Below are positions 1 to 44,220 of a stretch of 47,047 bases of DNA, one piece after another. A program made the translations under genes and the position numbers. The stretch comes from a phage, in sequence record OZ335955.1; one strand, written 5' to 3'. The stretch's first letter is position 1, and each line of letters opens with the position of its first letter. The notes under the pieces are model-generated. The model saw only the letters and a list, made by a program, of their open reading frames with translations, was not told the origin of the DNA and made no database searches.

Positions 1-1425
1 ATGGCTAGAAAAAGACTCTCAAGTGTGGCAATCGAAAAACTTGAACAGGCGGTTGGAAACTCAACTTCAAAGCCTGAGTCTGCTGTATTTGGCATTGTTA
101 ACAAACTGCTTGCCGATGGTACGCCTAATGTTATAAAGCGCCTAAAAATGACATCAACAGGCGTATCTGAAACAAACGAAGAACCAACAATCATCATTCC
201 CGAGAGAATGGAATTACTGCTTTATCCTCGTCGTTTCAAAGTGTTCTATGGTGGTAGGGGGAGCGGAAAGACGGCTAACGTTGTTTCTTACCTCATCGAA
301 AAGGCAAGATTCCGTAACAGTCGCGTCGGATGCTTTCGTGAGATACAGAACTCAATCAAAGAATCAAGCTATGCCGAACTGGTTGATGAGATAAACAGGA
401 AAGGACACACTCAGGAATATCGTTGCGTGGATGGTGAAATAACCCACCATTCAACGAGGTCAAAGTTTGTTTTCCGTGGTTTGTGGCGAAATATAACCGC
501 CATTAAGGGTATGGCTGGCCTTACAGATGTATTCTGTGAAGAATCAGAAAATATCAGCCAGGTTTCATGGGATACGCTAATCCCAACAGTCCGCGCCGCT
601 GGCTCTGAAATTATTATTGTTTTTAACCCAAACAAAGAGACGGACCCGACATGGACTAACTTTGTTGCGCCTTATATTGACAAGATGGTAGATGGCATAT
701 ATCAGGATGATGATATCGTTGTTGTTAATGTTAACTACGTCCATAACCCGTGGTTCACGGAAGAGCTGAAGCAGCACATGAACCAGATGAAGGCTGTGGA
801 TTATGATCGCTACCTTTGGGTGTATGAAGGCTTATTCAACAAGCGGTCTGAAGAAGCTGTGCTTGGCGGGAAATGGCAAACGCTGGACTTCGATCCATCT
901 CCAGAATGGGGAGGTCCTTACTACGGCATTGACTTTGGTTTTTCTCAGGATGCAACAGCAGCAACAGAGTCATATGTAGAAGATTTGGGAGATGGGCGCA
1001 GGAATCTATATATCTACCGCGACTTTGCAAAGGTTGGCCTTGAGATAACTGACACACCGGAGGCGATGCGCTCAGCATTCCCAAATTCAGAGAAGTACAG
1101 ATGGTATGGGGATTGCGCTCGCCCTGAGACAATAAGCCATATACGCCGATCTGGATTCGATATTCATCCGTGCGCTAAGTGGCCGGGTAGCATTGAGGAC
1201 GGAATCACGTGGTTACGTGGGTGCGACAGGATTTACGTACACTCAAGATGCAGGCACGTCATTGAAGAGATGACAATGTACAGCTACAAGGTGGATAAAT
1301 TAACAGGGAACATACTCCCTGACATAGTTGATAAATACAATCACGCGATTGATAGCCTACGATATGGCCTTGGAGACCATATCGTCCAGCGCGGTAGCGG
1401 GATGCTAATCCGGCGCAGGAGATAA
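1..1425 (+). CDS. terL: terminase large subunit
   Basis: 474-aa ORF with Walker A-like FYGGRGSGKT near the N-terminus and large-terminase size; directly upstream of portal gene. Confidence 0.85.
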   Translation: MARKRLSSVAIEKLEQAVGNSTSKPESAVFGIVNKLLADGTPNVIKRLKMTSTGVSETNEEPTIIIPERMELLLYPRRFKVFYGGRGSGKTANVVSYLIEKARFRNSRVGCFREIQNSIKESSYAELVDEINRKGHTQEYRCVDGEITHHSTRSKFVFRGLWRNITAIKGMAGLTDVFCEESENISQVSWDTLIPTVRAAGSEIIIVFNPNKETDPTWTNFVAPYIDKMVDGIYQDDDIVVVNVNYVHNPWFTEELKQHMNQMKAVDYDRYLWVYEGLFNKRSEEAVLGGKWQTLDFDPSPEWGGPYYGIDFGFSQDATAATESYVEDLGDGRRNLYIYRDFAKVGLEITDTPEAMRSAFPNSEKYRWYGDCARPETISHIRRSGFDIHPCAKWPGSIEDGITWLRGCDRIYVHSRCRHVIEEMTMYSYKVDKLTGNILPDIVDKYNHAIDSLRYGLGDHIVQRGSGMLIRRRR

Positions 1426-1430
1426 AAATA

Positions 1431-1456
1431 AAGCCCTCAAATGAGGGCTTGTTTTT
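1431..1456. terminator. rho-independent terminator (bidirectional hairpin)
   Basis: aagccctc-aaat-gagggctt stem-loop followed by gttttt; sits between convergent genes. Confidence 0.6.
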
Positions 1457-1646
1457 AGTTTAGGTATGCTGCTCGACCGGCCATGTATCCAGATAAGTAC
1501 ATTTTAAACCATTCGTTGCACTCGCCCTGTTCGTAATAAGCGCCAATCTTCCACATTTCCTTATCTTCTTTATCAAAACGAAAGCGGCCTTTGCAATTCA
1601 TTTCGAAGGATTTCATAATCTCGTACCATTCTTTGCTGTATAACAT
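1455..1646 (-). CDS. hypothetical protein
   Basis: ORF-track 1455..1679; start refined to ATG at 1646, the first ATG downstream of the predicted promoter and preceded by GAGG/GGGGAA. Confidence 0.4.
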   Translation of the reverse strand: MLYSKEWYEIMKSFEMNCKGRFRFDKEDKEMWKIGAYYEQGECNEWFKMYLSGYMAGRAAYLN

Positions 1647-1677
1647 TTTTGTTCCCCAACCTCGTTTCAATAAGGTC

Positions 1678-1706
1678 ATTCTACGCCACCATTGAATCTA
1701 CGTCAA
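1678..1706 (-). promoter_or_regulatory. sigma70-like promoter TTGACG-N17-TAGAAT (conserved family)
   Basis: reverse strand reads TTGACGTAGATTCAATGGTGGCGTAGAAT; drives the 1455..1646 gene. Confidence 0.5.
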
Positions 1707-1744
1707 CATTTATTATTAATGTTGGCAAATCCGCATCAACACAC

Positions 1745-1773
1745 TTGACCAATCTACACCGAGCGCATAGTAT
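1745..1773 (+). promoter_or_regulatory. sigma70-like promoter TTGACC-N17-TAGTAT
   Basis: TTGACCaatctacaccgagcgcaTAGTAT followed by atctacatca element; upstream of the 1804 ORF. Confidence 0.5.
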
Positions 1774-1803
1774 ATCTACATCAGGCTTAACGGAAATACT
1801 ATT

Positions 1804-2010
1804 ATGCGCAGCTATGCAGGATTCACACAGGAGGAAAAAGAACAGGTTTATTCACTGGCGCGCGCTGGTGTGCCTGATGAGGTTATTTGTCGCCGGTATG
1901 ACATCGACGAGGATTTCCTGCTGCGCGTTATTGATGATGTTTTCGTTAACCTGCAAGAGAAGCGCGGGTACAAGGGTATCTGCTGCAAGAATGATTTTTT
2001 GAGAGGGTGA
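1804..2010 (+). CDS. hypothetical protein
   Basis: 68-aa ORF with protein-like composition; preferred over overlapping 1649..2002 frame. Confidence 0.35.
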   Translation: MRSYAGFTQEEKEQVYSLARAGVPDEVICRRYDIDEDFLLRVIDDVFVNLQEKRGYKGICCKNDFLRG

Positions 2011-2014
2011 TGTG

Positions 2015-2209
2015 ATGATTAAGATAAGCAAGATGAGCAACAGAAGCAAGGTCGGTAGGATTGCTTTACTGCCAGTTTTTGTTCCAGTGTGGTTGTTATG
2101 GCTTTTATTTTCTGGCGCAAGAAATTTATTTGAGTATCTTGAATTTTGGCAGGCAAAGGTTATGCGAAAATTCCAAGATGTCATTGATAAGTGGTTTCCG
2201 CTTGGTTGA
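2015..2209 (+). CDS. small membrane protein
   Basis: ORF-track 2012..2209 starts at GTG; ATG at 2015 preceded by GAGGG; one predicted TM helix (LLPVFVPVWLLWLLF). Confidence 0.4.
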   Translation: MIKISKMSNRSKVGRIALLPVFVPVWLLWLLFSGARNLFEYLEFWQAKVMRKFQDVIDKWFPLG

Positions 2210-2217
2210 GGTGAGTG

Positions 2218-2337
2218 ATGAGCGTTTATTTTATTCATGCAGAAGCTATTCTCAATAATGGCTGCGTTGCCGAGAAGGTCGGTAAAGTGATAATTGCTAC
2301 TAATGCGGCCGCTGCGCTTGCTGGGTTTTGGTTGTAG
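2218..2337 (+). CDS. small hypothetical protein (39 aa)
   Basis: ATG preceded by GAGGTGA; below ORF-track size cut-off. Confidence 0.25.
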   Translation: MSVYFIHAEAILNNGCVAEKVGKVIIATNAAAALAGFWL

Positions 2338-2829: not shown

Positions 2830-4254
<1,425 letters not shown>

Positions 4255-4348
4255 TATAATCATAAATGCAGCTAGTCCGGCCAGACGAAAAGGTGAACGT
4301 AGACACCCTGCTGCATCCTCAATCTACGAACCTACTACGGGGTTACTC

Positions 4349-4990
4349 ATGGCAAAAAGACTCACCACGGAAGAATTCATTTCTCGCGCCAGACAAAAAC
4401 ATGGCGACAAGTGCATTTATCATAAATGTGAATACGTCAACGCAAAAACAAAAATCGTCATAACATGCAAAAAGCACGGCGATTTCACGCAATCACCAAG
4501 TGACCACCTGCAAGGAAAGGGGTGCAAGAGGTGTGCAGATATCTCAGGGTGGGATAAGAGAAAGATAACAACCTCCGAATTTGTCTTGAAGGCAAACGCG
4601 ATACACTCCAACAAGTACACATATGAAAAAGCCAAGTATAAGCAATGTCATTTAAAGGTGTGCATAACATGCAGAAGGCATGGTGATTTTTATCAATCAC
4701 CAAGTAGTCATTTAAGGGGCTTTGGTTGTCCATCGTGCAAGTTTGAATTAAATGCAGAAAGATGCAGAATGACAAAATCAGAGTTCATATCAAGGTCAAA
4801 TGAACTGCATGGTGACTCATATGACTACTCAATGGTGGAGTATAAAAACAATAACACCAAAGTTGCTATATTGTGTAAGGAGCACGGATTGTTCATGATG
4901 TCACCTGGCAATCATCTTGCTGGCACGCAAAGTACGGATTTGATTATAAAAGGGAAGGTTTTGTATATTTCCTCATGGGTGATGGTGTGA
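4349..4990 (+). CDS. homing-endonuclease-like protein, N-terminal part with three tandem ~60-aa Cys/His repeat modules
   Basis: ORF-track 4190..4990, start refined to ATG 4349 after portal stop; three repeats of pattern EFI-R--HGD-Y-Y-----N---KV-I-C--HG-F---P--HL-G-GC; ends GKVLYISSW just before a frame change. Confidence 0.45.
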   Translation: MAKRLTTEEFISRARQKHGDKCIYHKCEYVNAKTKIVITCKKHGDFTQSPSDHLQGKGCKRCADISGWDKRKITTSEFVLKANAIHSNKYTYEKAKYKQCHLKVCITCRRHGDFYQSPSSHLRGFGCPSCKFELNAERCRMTKSEFISRSNELHGDSYDYSMVEYKNNNTKVAILCKEHGLFMMSPGNHLAGTQSTDLIIKGKVLYISSWVMV

Positions 4991-5232
4991 TAAAAGTTGG
5001 CATAACAAATGATATAAGACAAAGGATTGCAAGATTATCAAGGAGGACACCTTTTGAATTTTCCTTGATTGCAAAAATAAAAACAACCGGGGAAGAAGCT
5101 GCGGCGATTGAAAAGTATTATCATAACAAATATGAATCAGCCGGTCTTTATGGTTTTGATGGTGCAACAGAGTGGTTGAAATATTCGACAGAACTTATGA
5201 ATGAGATCATGAATGAAGATACTCCGGTTTAA
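4975..5232 (+). CDS. T5orf172/GIY-YIG-like nuclease domain (C-terminal part of split gene)
   Basis: GVIKVGITNDIRQRIARLSRRTPFEF...KYYHNKYESAG resembles the T5orf172 domain; different frame from 4349..4990, overlapping by 16 nt. Confidence 0.45.
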   Translation: MGDGVIKVGITNDIRQRIARLSRRTPFEFSLIAKIKTTGEEAAAIEKYYHNKYESAGLYGFDGATEWLKYSTELMNEIMNEDTPV

Positions 5233-7052: not shown

Positions 7053-7062
7053 AATTATTCTC

Positions 7063-7350
7063 CTAACGCCTTATTAACCGCCGCATGCGCATTATCAAGA
7101 GCGCGGCGCTTGCTTGATGTTGTCCAGCCTTGCCGTATTGGTCGTCGTAGATTTCAAGTAGTTGCTGGAGTGCTGATAGTAGCTCTGGCGATTCTGCGAT
7201 TAATTTTGCGTTATGCCATTGTTCGGTTTTATCACCGTTATATGTTGGAGTTAACGCAATCTCAACGCCAATATCCGAGACAACATCTGGCGCGTTATCG
7301 TCACCATTAACAACCTCCCACACACCCGGCGTACCTTTAAATTTTCTCAT
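7063..7350 (-). CDS. hypothetical protein
   Basis: ORF-track 7063..7362 starts at GTG; ATG at 7350 preferred; product contains GTPGVWEV...NAKLIAESPELL motif seen in many enterobacterial phage proteins. Confidence 0.45.
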   Translation of the reverse strand: MRKFKGTPGVWEVVNGDDNAPDVVSDIGVEIALTPTYNGDKTEQWHNAKLIAESPELLSALQQLLEIYDDQYGKAGQHQASAALLIMRMRRLIRR

Positions 7351-7358
7351 CACCAATC

Positions 7359-7502
7359 TCACTTAATATATTCAATGATTTCGCATTCACGTATCTGCAC
7401 CAGACCAAATGGCGCAACCACTTTACCGCACGGACGGATTTTGATTTGCTCAAGGCAGAACACTCCGCAGCGTCCGTTTTCTTTGAATTTGACCATTACC
7501 AT
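7359..7502 (-). CDS. small Cys-containing protein (47 aa)
   Basis: MVMVKFKENGRCGVFCLEQIKIRPCGK...; not in ORF track (<60 aa). Confidence 0.25.
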   Translation of the reverse strand: MVMVKFKENGRCGVFCLEQIKIRPCGKVVAPFGLVQIRECEIIEYIK

Positions 7503-7511
7503 GATTTAACC

Positions 7512-7898
7512 TTAAAAAATAATTAATGTAGGCTGCAATTCTTCTTCATACCAAGTCCAGCCAATACACCGCCCTTCCATGGCGTCAATGTAAGGCTTTA
7601 CCCAATCCAAAAATGCCTGAATCTCACCGCTATAGTTTTTGATATCGCTGCGACTGAAGATGTATTGCTCGTCGCTGTAGTCAAATTTTGGGCAACTATT
7701 AACTACGGATGGGTGATGGTAAAAGCTACAGTAGTTACCAATAGAATCCCAGCGCGGTAGTGTGAAAAATTCATGCTCAGGAAGCTTTACCGGCCTGTCG
7801 GCACCAGCAAACATATACTGGATTACATCCATCACCTCTTTCGGTACACCCCCCCCCTTAATCTGACACTTTAAAACCAACTCTGTGTACATTCCCAT
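7512..7898 (-). CDS. hypothetical protein (contains G9 homopolymer in coding strand)
   Basis: 128-aa ORF, first gene after the minus promoter at 7931..7959; run of nine C at 7849..7857 encodes KGGGV. Confidence 0.5.
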   Translation of the reverse strand: MGMYTELVLKCQIKGGGVPKEVMDVIQYMFAGADRPVKLPEHEFFTLPRWDSIGNYCSFYHHPSVVNSCPKFDYSDEQYIFSRSDIKNYSGEIQAFLDWVKPYIDAMEGRCIGWTWYEEELQPTLIIF

Positions 7899-40223: not shown

Positions 40224-40238
40224 TGTTATATCCTTTTG

Positions 40239-40268
40239 TTGATGTTTCTACGTCAGTTAGCTTATACT
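40239..40268 (+). promoter_or_regulatory. sigma70-like promoter TTGATG-N18-TATACT
   Basis: contains tctacgtca element in spacer and caatctacacc just downstream of -10. Confidence 0.5.
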
Positions 40269-40298
40269 CAATCTACACCAACAATCAAGGGTCAATTT

Positions 40299-41252
40299 AT
40301 GAGATACGACTGGAAAGACATTGAGCCAAAGATGCTCGGAAACTGGGAGGCGGCACTACTGTCAATAGTCAACATAGACAGGAAGATTTTTTCTGGAAAA
40401 CATCAGCCATGCCCTCATTGCATGGGGGTTGACCGGTTTCGTTGGGATAATCACTTCGAAATCAAAGGAGACGGCGGCGCAATCTGCAACCAGTGCGGTT
40501 CAGGCAGCGGCATGAACTGGCTAATGAAACTTTCTGGTATGAGCTTTCCCGAAGCACTGGAGGCGCTGGGTGGATTCCTGAATATGAATCCACGCGAAAA
40601 GCTGGATGCAATCAGGAAGGAACTGCCGAAGATAAATCACAATGACGACTTCATCACCGAGCAGGAAGTCGCCGCAATTATGGCTAAAACGACGCGTATC
40701 GCTATGAATGAGTGGACTTTGATAAATGGTATTGGTTGCGACGTTAACGTCGTCAGCGGCAAATCTGGAGAGCTTATTGCGGTTGAGATGGTGCGTGCTG
40801 ACACAATGAAGCCGTGCAACGTCGCATTCATTGGCATGGATGGTGATGCATTCAGAACATTCTACAAAGCAGGATATAACAAAGACTCAGCCATCAACGG
40901 AAAACTCACACGCGGCGCGATAAGCACAATCGGAGAAGATAACGGGAAGTTCATTTACCTGGTATCTGATTATGCCGACGCGTGGAAATGCCATTACTTC
41001 ACTGGCGTGCATGTCTGGTGCTGCTGGTCGCCGGAAAACATGTGGGAAGTGGTGCGCTCTGTTAGCGATGAGATGAAAGCACGGTTACGCTGCATAGTTA
41101 ATTATAAATTTGACGAGCTTTGCGCAGCGGACAACGCAGGACTTCCGGTAATGCTGCCTGATGATGCTGACACTATCAGGATGGCGAAGCGAATCAGGAG
41201 AAAGATTTATGACGCCGGCGAGTTGATAGGTAAAATGTCAGCCAGAAGATAA
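40299..41252 (+). CDS. DNA primase (zinc-ribbon plus Toprim-like)
   Basis: ORF-track 40236..41252 starts at TTG; ATG 40299; CPHCMGVDRFRWDNHF...CNQCGSGSG resembles the P4 alpha-type primase zinc-binding domain. Confidence 0.55.
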   Translation: MRYDWKDIEPKMLGNWEAALLSIVNIDRKIFSGKHQPCPHCMGVDRFRWDNHFEIKGDGGAICNQCGSGSGMNWLMKLSGMSFPEALEALGGFLNMNPREKLDAIRKELPKINHNDDFITEQEVAAIMAKTTRIAMNEWTLINGIGCDVNVVSGKSGELIAVEMVRADTMKPCNVAFIGMDGDAFRTFYKAGYNKDSAINGKLTRGAISTIGEDNGKFIYLVSDYADAWKCHYFTGVHVWCCWSPENMWEVVRSVSDEMKARLRCIVNYKFDELCAADNAGLPVMLPDDADTIRMAKRIRRKIYDAGELIGKMSARR

Positions 41253-41256
41253 AAGA

Positions 41257-41282
41257 AACCCTCCGATTGGAGGGTTTTTGTT
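41257..41282. terminator. rho-independent terminator (bidirectional)
   Basis: aaccctcc-gatt-ggagggtt hairpin followed by T-run, between convergent genes. Confidence 0.6.
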
Positions 41283-41283
41283 A

Positions 41284-41697
41284 TCAGCGTTTCATCTTGT
41301 CAATTTCATCGTCAATAATCTTTATTATCTCTCGCTTTGCATTCCTCCATGCATAAATGGCATCAAGCGAAGCTCTGTCTTTTGAATCACCGGTGGCTGT
41401 TGAATACAGTATTATGTCTCCCATCTTACAAAATTTATCAATGTAAACAGCCCTAAAAAGACCATCTCCGCAACTCCAGCACAAGCAATTATTTATTTTC
41501 TCGCAATCATTAACAATACTTAGAGTGTTAAACGTCTCAAACCATCCACGGCGTTCACCAATGCAAATGGAGTAATCATAATCACCATATCCACAAGGAG
41601 ATACTGAACACTCAAGAAGAAAAAGTCGATATTCATACAACTTTAGAGCTATCGCCTTGTGAATAAGAAACTTGAGTTTTTTCTTGGCGCTCATCAA
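41284..41697 (-). CDS. hypothetical Cys-rich protein
   Basis: 137-aa ORF. Confidence 0.45.
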   Translation of the reverse strand: MMSAKKKLKFLIHKAIALKLYEYRLFLLECSVSPCGYGDYDYSICIGERRGWFETFNTLSIVNDCEKINNCLCWSCGDGLFRAVYIDKFCKMGDIILYSTATGDSKDRASLDAIYAWRNAKREIIKIIDDEIDKMKR

Positions 41698-42060
41698 AGC
41701 ACACCCTCACTGCGTTTATGCTCAATTTCATTCCGTATACGAAGCCACAATTTCCTTGTGTTTTTTACTGCCTTGTCTTTTGTTTCCCCGATTCCAGACG
41801 TGTGAATCTGATACTTTTTACCAGTATGATGTCCATCTATGCCAATCAAGACGCCTCTCCAACCATTACCATGCACGTCTTTGAAGCAAAAAAATACCGC
41901 CAATAACTTCAATGCCTTCTTGAGAGTCTCCATATGGGAAAAACAGATCATGAAACCAATCACAATCCGCAGCTCCCAATATGAAATCAACTTTACCAGG
42001 ACGAGTTTCTGTTGCATAACAGTTAACAACATTTTCATTAATCACTATATTCATCGCCAA
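41694..42060 (-). pseudogene. hypothetical protein split by a frameshift at an A7/T7 homopolymer (ORFs 41866..42060 and 41694..42038)
   Basis: N-terminal frame ends ...EVIGGIF and the other frame continues FCFKDVHGNGW... at tract 41888..41894; a 1-nt deletion would fuse them into ~122 aa. Confidence 0.4.
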
Positions 42061-43541
42061 CCCCTCATTGCAGCCATATTCATGCCAATACCATCAACAA
42101 TTTGCGTGAATTTAACGCTCATTTTCGTACCTTCAAATTTACTTGCGTCGTTAATCCAGTAACCGCAACCTACAGCATCAATTGCACGAGATGCCATGAG
42201 AGATTGTATTACTGGAGTAACAAGAGTTTTTGCCCCATAGGAAAAATCTTCCCCATTAGACCTTGCTATTGCCTCAGCAAGAGCCTTGAGGGATTTTGTT
42301 TTAACAGCCCTCTGAACGAGAATAGACTGAGGCATCCTGTCATCCTTCGTTCTTCCAGAAAGGATATTCTCAATTCTATTTTTAATCTCATTCCATCTGG
42401 CCATTGTTCCGAGTTCTTCCTGGCTTTCGTTCACTTTTAGCATGCTCATGACGTCTGTCAGGCTTTCGCAAACAAAACAGAATGACCACATCAGCATTTC
42501 TTCTGTAATTACACCTTTATTCCCAGCAGAAAGTGCAGTTGCAACTTTTTCAACCTGTTCGAATGAACGGGCAATTACCGCGCCAAGAGAAACATCATTT
42601 ACCAGCTCCTCAAATCTGTCATCAAGTGATTCAGCCAGCGCCTGCACAACATCGTTTTCGTATCTTGCAACCTGTGGTGATGATTTTTCCACTGCCTTCA
42701 TTTTATCTATTAGAGACTGTGGTGTTTTATGGCCATATTTGCGTAATTTCCTCGCGCGACCGTCTTTCCCCTTAATGAAGATTGCTCGACCAATCAAGCC
42801 TGTTCCGATATTTTCTGAACAAATAATGCTGGACAGCTTCTCTGGTGTTGAAAAGCACATCATTGAGAATATCGGGTCTTCGATACCCTGCTGAATTGGC
42901 CACAATATTTCACGCTCAAGCTGCTGCTCGCGTCTGCGGTATTCTGACTCTACAATCCCTTTGTCCTTAACTTCAGCCTTCAGCTTCTTAAGCTCCTTCT
43001 CAAGCTGCTCTTTGGCGTTAACAGCATCAAGGTCGGAAAACTTCTTCAGCCTGTCGGAATAAACAGACAGAATTTCAGAACCAAGTTCAGCCATGTAAGC
43101 CGCGCCATTCTTCTGAGTCATTACACCAAACAATCCATGACATTCATCAATAATAAATGTCGCTACGCCATCATGATTTATCAGTGACCGACCGATATCT
43201 TTTGATGATGCAATGCGACCAAATACATGCATACCCTTTTCGATATCTCTCGCCATGATTTTGAAATGGCTTTGTGACCTATCCTTTCCTCCCGCTGAAT
43301 CTGCGATACAGATAGTAAGAAGATTTCCCTTCATACCGCTTGGTGTTTTAATCTTACCCTTGCTGGCAATAATCAGTTCATGAAGAGCGGCAACAGCCCT
43401 GAGTCTTGGTTGTTCACGAACCTCACCAGCGGCAATGTCATCAGCAATTTCACCGGCAAGACCAGGTGGTTTGGTAATGTCGTACCACTTTTCTTTGTTT
43501 ATGTCTGCCGTCAGGTCATAAATGGTTTTTATCGACATCAT
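42051..43541 (-). CDS. DUF3987-like replication-associated protein (putative helicase/loader)
   Basis: 496 aa; NLLTICIADSAGGKDRS P-loop-like segment and overall pattern resemble primase-associated DUF3987 proteins. Confidence 0.4.
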   Translation of the reverse strand: MMSIKTIYDLTADINKEKWYDITKPPGLAGEIADDIAAGEVREQPRLRAVAALHELIIASKGKIKTPSGMKGNLLTICIADSAGGKDRSQSHFKIMARDIEKGMHVFGRIASSKDIGRSLINHDGVATFIIDECHGLFGVMTQKNGAAYMAELGSEILSVYSDRLKKFSDLDAVNAKEQLEKELKKLKAEVKDKGIVESEYRRREQQLEREILWPIQQGIEDPIFSMMCFSTPEKLSSIICSENIGTGLIGRAIFIKGKDGRARKLRKYGHKTPQSLIDKMKAVEKSSPQVARYENDVVQALAESLDDRFEELVNDVSLGAVIARSFEQVEKVATALSAGNKGVITEEMLMWSFCFVCESLTDVMSMLKVNESQEELGTMARWNEIKNRIENILSGRTKDDRMPQSILVQRAVKTKSLKALAEAIARSNGEDFSYGAKTLVTPVIQSLMASRAIDAVGCGYWINDASKFEGTKMSVKFTQIVDGIGMNMAAMRGWR

Positions 43542-43783: not shown

Positions 43784-44220
43784 CAGGTATCTTATTCTTA
43801 TCCATTCCCCATGTCAACCAAGCCGCAACATGCGCAAATCACTTATCCGCTAAATGTAATTCGGGATAAAACGGGATAAGAACGGGGAAAGTTTGGGATA
43901 AGTAATTTTAGTACTAAGTATATGTATTTATTACTATTACTATTTATATATACTGCTATTTATCCTATTTATACCATTTTTCTCACCATGTTTTTGTCAC
44001 CAAAAAAATCCATTCCAAAAATTATATTTCTCTCTATTAGATTCGGGATAAGTGTAAATGGGATAAAACGACGCAACATCATGATTTATTACGAGTTTTT
44101 TGGGGTAAATGAAAAAATCAGCGGGATAAAACGGATAAATTCACCTGTTAAAAATCAATTACTTACAAAATTAATAACTGTTGGTGATAACTAACAGTGT
44201 GGTTTGTTTTAGTCATTGTA
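43784..44220. repeat. iteron-rich AT-rich non-coding region (putative replication origin)
   Basis: at least seven copies of GGGATAA(A/G) in both orientations flanking a ~120-bp AT-rich island (43900..44040). Confidence 0.5.

Follow-up and report, generated by a model that had tools for sequence, protein, structure and literature searches.

A 119-codon accessory gene of a Skatevirus-group phage appears to have lost its reading frame where a coding run of six Ts has become seven. We give about even odds (roughly 0.5) to this site being a non-programmed single-base expansion, T6 to T7, that is a real mutation of the phage. The DNA analysed, hereafter the window, is 47,047 bp long and comprises a complete siphophage genome of this group (Salmonella-phage-like), opened at the large terminase gene (ORF 1..1425). 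Its gene order is collinear with that of Salmonella phage Skate, and the nearest records, KFSST1 and Skate, show ~90% identity across ~79% of the first 25 kb of the window. The gene itself is already known, as an intact, conserved and narrowly distributed family in Skatevirus-type Salmonella phages.

One gene divided at a homopolymer

Two overlapping minus-strand open reading frames (ORFs), 41866..42060 and 41694..42038, are present where the original prediction placed them, and their frames switch exactly at the T7 run, as it had claimed. The first encodes 64 aa if started at TTG 42060 and 62 aa if started at ATG 42054, and the second encodes 114 aa. Across the site the minus strand reads GAA GTT ATT GGC GGT ATT TTT TTG CTT CAA AGA CGT GCA TGG TAA, and the second ORF, in the +1 frame, reads CFKDVHGNGWRGVLIGIDGHHTGKK from the run on. 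Deletion of one T leaves 121 codons from TTG 42060 or a protein of 119 aa from ATG 42054. The continuity foreseen for the restored protein and its junction peptide (...EVIGGIF-CFKDVHGNGW...) are borne out, and its predicted size of ~122 aa is to be corrected to these values. The shift required between the upstream and downstream frames is +1 (or −2), at ATT TTT T/TG C, where the slash marks the change of frame; a −1 shift leads into the wrong frame.

The repaired product matches the phrog_38095 profile end to end (positions 1–119 of 119, E 1e-80) and aligns in one piece to 119-aa genes, so that, judged from sequence, the two ORFs are one gene divided at the homopolymer and not a chance pairing. 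Profile similarity and gene position both place the window copy in the phrog_38095 / Skate gp65 family, and the uninterrupted 119-codon frame is missing from it. The window copy is evidently a broken allele of this family, with its frame lost after codon 57.

The gene is the second of three mapped in an operon that runs from a helicase/primase-like gene to a terminator (Table 1). ATG 42054 is the start annotated in relatives; it overlaps the helicase stop as ATGA and has GAGGGG just before it. For the 3′ part, the sole in-frame start is a fortuitous upstream ATG at 42038. In relatives, the ATG of the downstream gene overlaps the stop of the 119-aa gene (TGATG), and the annotation of Skate has terminators at the place equivalent to the hairpin of the window.

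Table 1. Coordinates of the split gene, its operon and the other frame breaks in the window
Feature	Position	Strand	Description
Frameshift site, T7 homopolymer	41888..41894	−	A7 on the + strand; T6 in relatives, Ile-Phe-Cys (ATT TTT TGC)
Whole disrupted gene, frameshifted 119-codon Skatevirus accessory gene	41694..42054	−	phrog_38095; 361 nt here, 360 nt in relatives
5′ fragment, 62 codons from ATG 42054	41866..42054	−	residues 1–57 native, then LLQRRAW; stop TAA 41866..41868
3′ part, +1 frame	41694..41893	−	native residues about 57–119, CFKDVHGNGW...SEGVL; stop TGA 41694..41696
Upstream gene, 496-aa protein annotated as primase or replicative helicase, intact	42051..43541	−	phrog_33132; same operon
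Downstream gene, 136 aa from ATG	41284..41694	−	phrog_29997, function unknown; own GAGGG ~9 nt upstream
Terminator-like hairpin ending the operon	41256..41277	−	common to the convergent primase gene 40236..41252 (+)
Sigma-70-like promoter match upstream of the operon	43789..43817	−	TTGACA-17-TAAGAT; consensus match only
Second private frameshift, 1-nt deletion	24370..24662, break ~24518	−	CGGCAAG to CGGAAG, no homopolymer; Skate gp83 homologue, 97 aa, phrog_2315
Third private frameshift, 1-nt deletion	7058..7362, break ~7131	−	TTT to TT; Skate gp12 homologue, 100 aa, phrog_1273
Homing-endonuclease-like gene, 16-nt deletion relative to Skate, frame broken	4181..5229, break ~4925	+	Skate gp09; T5orf172/MUG113 and HNH-type PHROGs

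Relatives carry an intact gene with six Ts

The repaired protein aligns to 93 phage records at 92.8–98.3% identity, all of them Salmonella phages. Among the 60 rows listed for these records, 58 match over the full length in a single piece; the remaining two belong to engineered mutants of phage seszw, one of which (seszw_40S) is frameshifted at a different run and the other truncated at the 3′ end. Skate (gp65), KFS-SE2 (gp48), KFSST1 and Seszw_1 (orthologue Seszw_45) each have a single 360-nt CDS annotated at the same position. The orthologues are flanked by a 496-aa helicase/primase-like gene on one side and a 136-aa gene on the other, start with the same ATGA overlap, and precede a bidirectional terminator that also serves the convergent primase gene. 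Two clusters of full-length proteins, P0001 and P0002, contain 67 and 37 sequences, respectively.

At the nucleotide level, the window has exactly one T more than KFSST1, KFS-SE2, Seszw_1 and Skate, in a gene that is otherwise 97–99% identical. A DNA search returned 92 records covering ≥80% of the query, and in the full-length rows among the 52 of them listed, 601 query bases map onto 600 record bases; the exception is the seszw mutant MZ375306.1, which aligns in two pieces spanning 646 bases. In three contigs that encode a helicase protein identical to that of the window, the gene that follows is an intact 119-aa gene with T6. A pattern in which T6, T7 or T8 was permitted matched seven times in IMG/VR, always with T6, and had no match in GTDB genomes or JGI metagenomes. 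Exact-match queries with the 62-aa and 114-aa ORF products, the 136-aa downstream protein and the 836-aa tailspike, aimed at an independent assembly of this phage, came back empty in the collections queried, and megablast gave no match among E. coli genomes. When the run was counted in every fetched locus, T6 was found in 16 of 16 clean loci and T7 only in two contigs, L008 and L009. An alignment of homologues had been proposed as a check on the split gene: the homologues do not stop at the junction and read through it with T6, which upholds the idea of one divided gene and points to a simple indel rather than recoding.

Other copies of T7 and a distant homologue

In a protein search, two truncated or chimeric products imply T7, namely P0004 (NCBI contig VZQY01000168.1, GCA_018263635.1) and P0006 (ENA ERZ1948697 contig_319). 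In both of the T7 contigs, L008 and L009, the essential 496-aa helicase gene is shattered into at least four pieces, and over 4.2 kb they differ from Skate by 31 and 39 indel events, nearly all of them ±1 changes at short homopolymers. We rejected P0004 and P0006 as natural T7 alleles because their contigs are riddled with homopolymer indels; these copies of T7 appear to show only that the run is easily miscalled.

A HMMER scan of 1.84 billion representative proteins gave six matches only. One of them, P0008 (115 aa), is the sole distant homologue found, with 35% identity to the repaired protein in the multiple alignment and 38% in the HMMER hit table. It is continuous across the junction (IINGVICYKD versus VIGGIFCFKD) and keeps C56, K58, D59, G62 and W65, and its DNA at this place is ATT TGC TAT, with no T run. 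Because P0008 reads through the junction without any run, the T run of the Skatevirus genes is evidently no conserved device and is incidental to the codons ATT TTT TGC; what appears to be conserved is a single-frame protein. In Logan SRR10605991_75 (422..2322), the P0008 gene comes directly after a primase/helicase-type gene (DUF3987), whose stop its own start overlaps. BLASTP detected no similarity between the product of this DUF3987 gene and the 496-aa protein of the window, so the small gene seems to accompany replication genes of more than one type.

Recoding and phase variation

The original prediction had suggested a slippage or phase-variable site at the run, and several observations leave this suggestion unsupported. 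Clean relatives have T6 in frame, the other T7s are confined to error-rich contigs, and P0008 has no run: the two-frame layout is not conserved. The shift needed is +1, no stimulatory structure follows, and the seven bases are short of the ~9 nt that are typical of programmed transcriptional slippage sites (PMC1088944).

Programmed recoding would make T7 the site of a ribosomal +1 shift, or of the loss of a U by RNA polymerase, that yields 62-aa and 119-aa products in a set ratio. The site has features that could be read in this way: T TTT TTG is a slippery sequence, and a Shine–Dalgarno-like GGAGAGG with a TTG lies just past the stop of the first ORF. However, a heptamer of the form X XXY YYZ serves −1 shifting and is irrelevant to the +1 or −2 shift needed here, and a −1 programmed frameshift is ruled out by the +1 relation of the two frames. 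Sites of +1 frameshifting of the prfB type combine an in-frame stop in the A site with an upstream Shine–Dalgarno-like stimulator. The window resembles them in needing a +1 shift and in having a U run that would let the P-site tRNA-Phe re-pair one base downstream. It differs from them in that the A-site codon is TTG and not a stop, in that no Shine–Dalgarno-like stimulator lies upstream at the right distance (there is GGCGGU only), and in a layout that is conserved in no homologue. A downstream RNA stimulator was also considered and rejected: minus-strand RNA from 41790..41910 (121 nt) folds with a z of +0.73, a result equalled or bettered by 152 of 200 shuffles.

On the side of transcription, E. 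coli RNA polymerase slips detectably from T7 upwards, so that some full-length product is plausible (PMC6260861). In the GFP reporter experiments of Koscielniak et al. (2018) with this enzyme, rescue was nil below T7 or A8, and reached ~5% at T7, by insertion slippage, and ~10% by deletion at T8 (PMC6260861). The window is comparable to such non-programmed rescue, with a sense-strand poly-T of seven and a +1 indel that the host RNA polymerase would transcribe. It is unlike the cases in which slippage is exploited (Thermus dnaX A9, Shigella mxiE T9 and IS elements; PMC1088944), which have longer runs and a conserved frameshifted layout; selection against A/T runs begins at ~9 bases in many bacteria (Baranov et al. 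2005, PMC1088944). The host enzyme may delete one U on U7 in at most a few percent of transcripts, giving a trace of full-length protein, which would be leakiness and not a regulated device. It is very unlikely that the T7 allele is real and leaky in the sense of making mostly the 62-residue fragment together with a small set amount of 119-aa protein, as U7 loses one U in a few percent of transcripts; if it were, an accessory gene of the replication module would have come by accident, and recently, to make two products. Programmed recoding proper is likewise very unlikely.

A phase-variable (contingency) tract, in which switching between six and seven Ts at high frequency toggles the gene on and off, is similarly improbable. 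Homopolymers do mutate through replication slippage, a second run of the same gene (A6) is frameshifted in the laboratory clone seszw_40S, and T7 is also read in two metagenome-type contigs. However, both of these contigs are unreliable at every homopolymer, and the tract shows no length polymorphism, being T6 throughout in 93 phage records, 3 contigs with the identical helicase and 7 IMG/VR contigs. Six to seven bases are also short for a contingency tract, and the gene has no known host-range or surface-interaction role that would reward switching. Even when programmed recoding and phase variation are taken together, their chance is slim.

Real mutation or assembly error

The main competitor of a real mutation is an artefact of sequencing or assembly, in which case the gene of the phage itself is intact, with T6, and base-calling, polishing or consensus error added one more T. 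We consider this quite possible, at somewhat less than even odds. A +1 change in the longest A/T run class of the genome is a classic error context, and T7 is unique to the window against >100 relatives. The same T6-to-T7 reading occurs, among dozens of ±1 errors, in VZQY01000168.1 and ERZ1948697 contig_319, two independent, error-ridden assemblies of long-read type, so the run is miscalled in practice.

Against such an origin, the window is otherwise clean at homopolymers, unlike these error-rich assemblies, and its essential genes are intact. KFSST1 or Skate allow a comparison for ~30 homopolymers, of which only 5 differ in length; among these, the one at 2815 matches Skate and the one at 44002 varies between relatives too. 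A genome-wide excess of ±1 homopolymer changes, the signature of such errors, is absent from the window, as compared with the 31–39 events per 4.2 kb in L008 and L009.

Two further private frameshifts, both 1-nt deletions in conserved small genes (24518 and 7131; Table 1), can be read either way. For 24518, 117 phage records match, and the 25 of them listed all have one base more than the window; the same holds for the best-matching relatives at 7131. These deletions would fit the low residual indel rate of a polished long-read assembly, and a natural isolate would usually have fewer than three private frameshifts in a 47-kb genome. All genome-reduced seszw mutants listed keep their orthologue of the gene broken at 24518, so this gene might not be freely dispensable, which would speak for error at that site. 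On the other hand, both deletions lie outside long runs (TTT to TT, GGCAA to GGAA), and a 16-nt deletion elsewhere in the window is atypical for a base-calling error and supports real change.

The distribution of the breaks also argues against random error. All four that we found affect small genes of accessory or homing-endonuclease-like type (phrog_38095, phrog_2315, phrog_1273 and the T5orf172-like gene), and none in the large or essential genes that make up ~60% of the genome, with all large genes intact. The chance that random error would put three of three single-base indels into the accessory one third or so of the genome is ~4%, as a rough estimate and not a formal test. We infer, at about even odds, that the extra base is truly in the phage DNA. 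For a real mutation, the most likely origin would be replication slippage at the T run within this lineage, and the break would be tolerated because lytic growth in the laboratory does not require the gene.

The gene broken at 24518 adjoins a superinfection-immunity gene, and the homing-endonuclease-like gene sits between the portal and head-morphogenesis genes. The tape-measure gene (792 aa, versus 1096 aa in Skate) was considered as another break and rejected; it is divergent but intact, with the usual stop/start overlap with the next gene.

Dispensability and consequences of the break

Work that used CRISPR to reduce the genome of phage seszw deposited the sequences of many viable mutants, and classed genes absent from isolated mutants as non-essential (PMC9825161). 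In the deposited genome of the viable mutant seszw_180S, a clean 312-nt deletion takes nearly the whole orthologue together with the next gene. Because a viable engineered mutant thus lacks the orthologue, we take the gene to be dispensable in the laboratory, on evidence from one host strain and from a relative with 97.5% identity across the 601-bp query. A second viable mutant, seszw_40S (MZ375302.1), has a 1-nt deletion in the A6 run of the orthologue (GTAAAAAAC; A6 to A5, alignment column 306), which indicates that the gene has two slippage-prone runs and tolerates frameshifts.

In the window, translation from ATG 42054 would stop after 62 residues, 57 of them native and followed by LLQRRAW. 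In an AF2 model of the intact protein, the break falls within a beta hairpin (strands 48–51 and 54–58), upstream of strands 65–73 and 81–89 and helix 92–115; the model is of moderate confidence, with a mean pLDDT of 63, 75–88 in the C-terminal half and <50 in the N-terminal 45 residues. Of the predicted fold, the truncated product would thus lack the C-terminal helix and two of the four core beta strands. The downstream 136-aa gene has probably lost its translational coupling as well, because ribosomes would now terminate 172 nt before the TGATG overlap.

Searches of Pfam and NCBIfam with the 119-aa protein, and a profile search of PDB sequences, gave nothing usable, and a Foldseek search of the AF2 model against the PDB had a best E of 0.41, with TM <0.4. 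Residues 35–96 of the repaired protein, from the half that contains ...GNGW...HHTGKKYQIH..., weakly match P0010 (E 2.4e-4, 27% identity), a 325-aa, three-repeat GBS Bsp-like protein (PF08481, E 6.7e-59). P0001 itself has no match to PF08481, and for this reason we did not assign a GBS Bsp-like fold to the phage protein. Gene order suggests an accessory role associated with replication, because even the 35%-identical homologue is paired with a primase/helicase-type gene.

Other homopolymers and related assemblies

The longest homopolymer in the genome is C9 on the plus strand (G9 on the minus strand) at 7849..7857, within the minus-strand ORF 7512..7898. It is in frame near the 5′ end of this 128-aa ORF (IKGGGVP), and at its position the relatives NX263 and HC6 have GGGAGATG (IKGDAP), which is 3 nt shorter. 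The G9 tract is a more plausible slippage-prone site than T7, although it is in frame here. A run of A7 on the plus strand at 44002..44008, in a region of tiny ORFs upstream of the promoter-like site of the helicase operon, corresponds to T5 in KFSST1 and in a Salmonella-assembly contig, to T6 in Skate and to T7 in the window, and is interrupted in another contig. KFSST1 also differs from the window by one T at 44096..44101.

Two NCBI assemblies each include a near-complete Skatevirus-like genome in one contig (GCA_006141095.1, AAERWG010000033.1, 49.3 kb; GCA_036959165.1, JARAKY010000029.1, 47.0 kb), and both encode a 496-aa protein identical to that of the window. If these are assemblies of bacterial isolates, the phage would have been carried along in culture, as a carrier state, pseudolysogeny or contamination.

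Implications

The site is an ordinary frameshifted allele of, or an error in, a known and dispensable phage gene, and it opens no new biological question. The annotation should show a single frameshifted gene here, marked as a pseudogene or as 'sequence to be checked', in place of two hypothetical proteins or a recoding site. If the extra T is an error, it would flag the assembly for re-polishing, along with the positions 24518 and 7131. If it is real, it would be a small natural confirmation that this gene is dispensable, in agreement with the CRISPR genome reduction of seszw.
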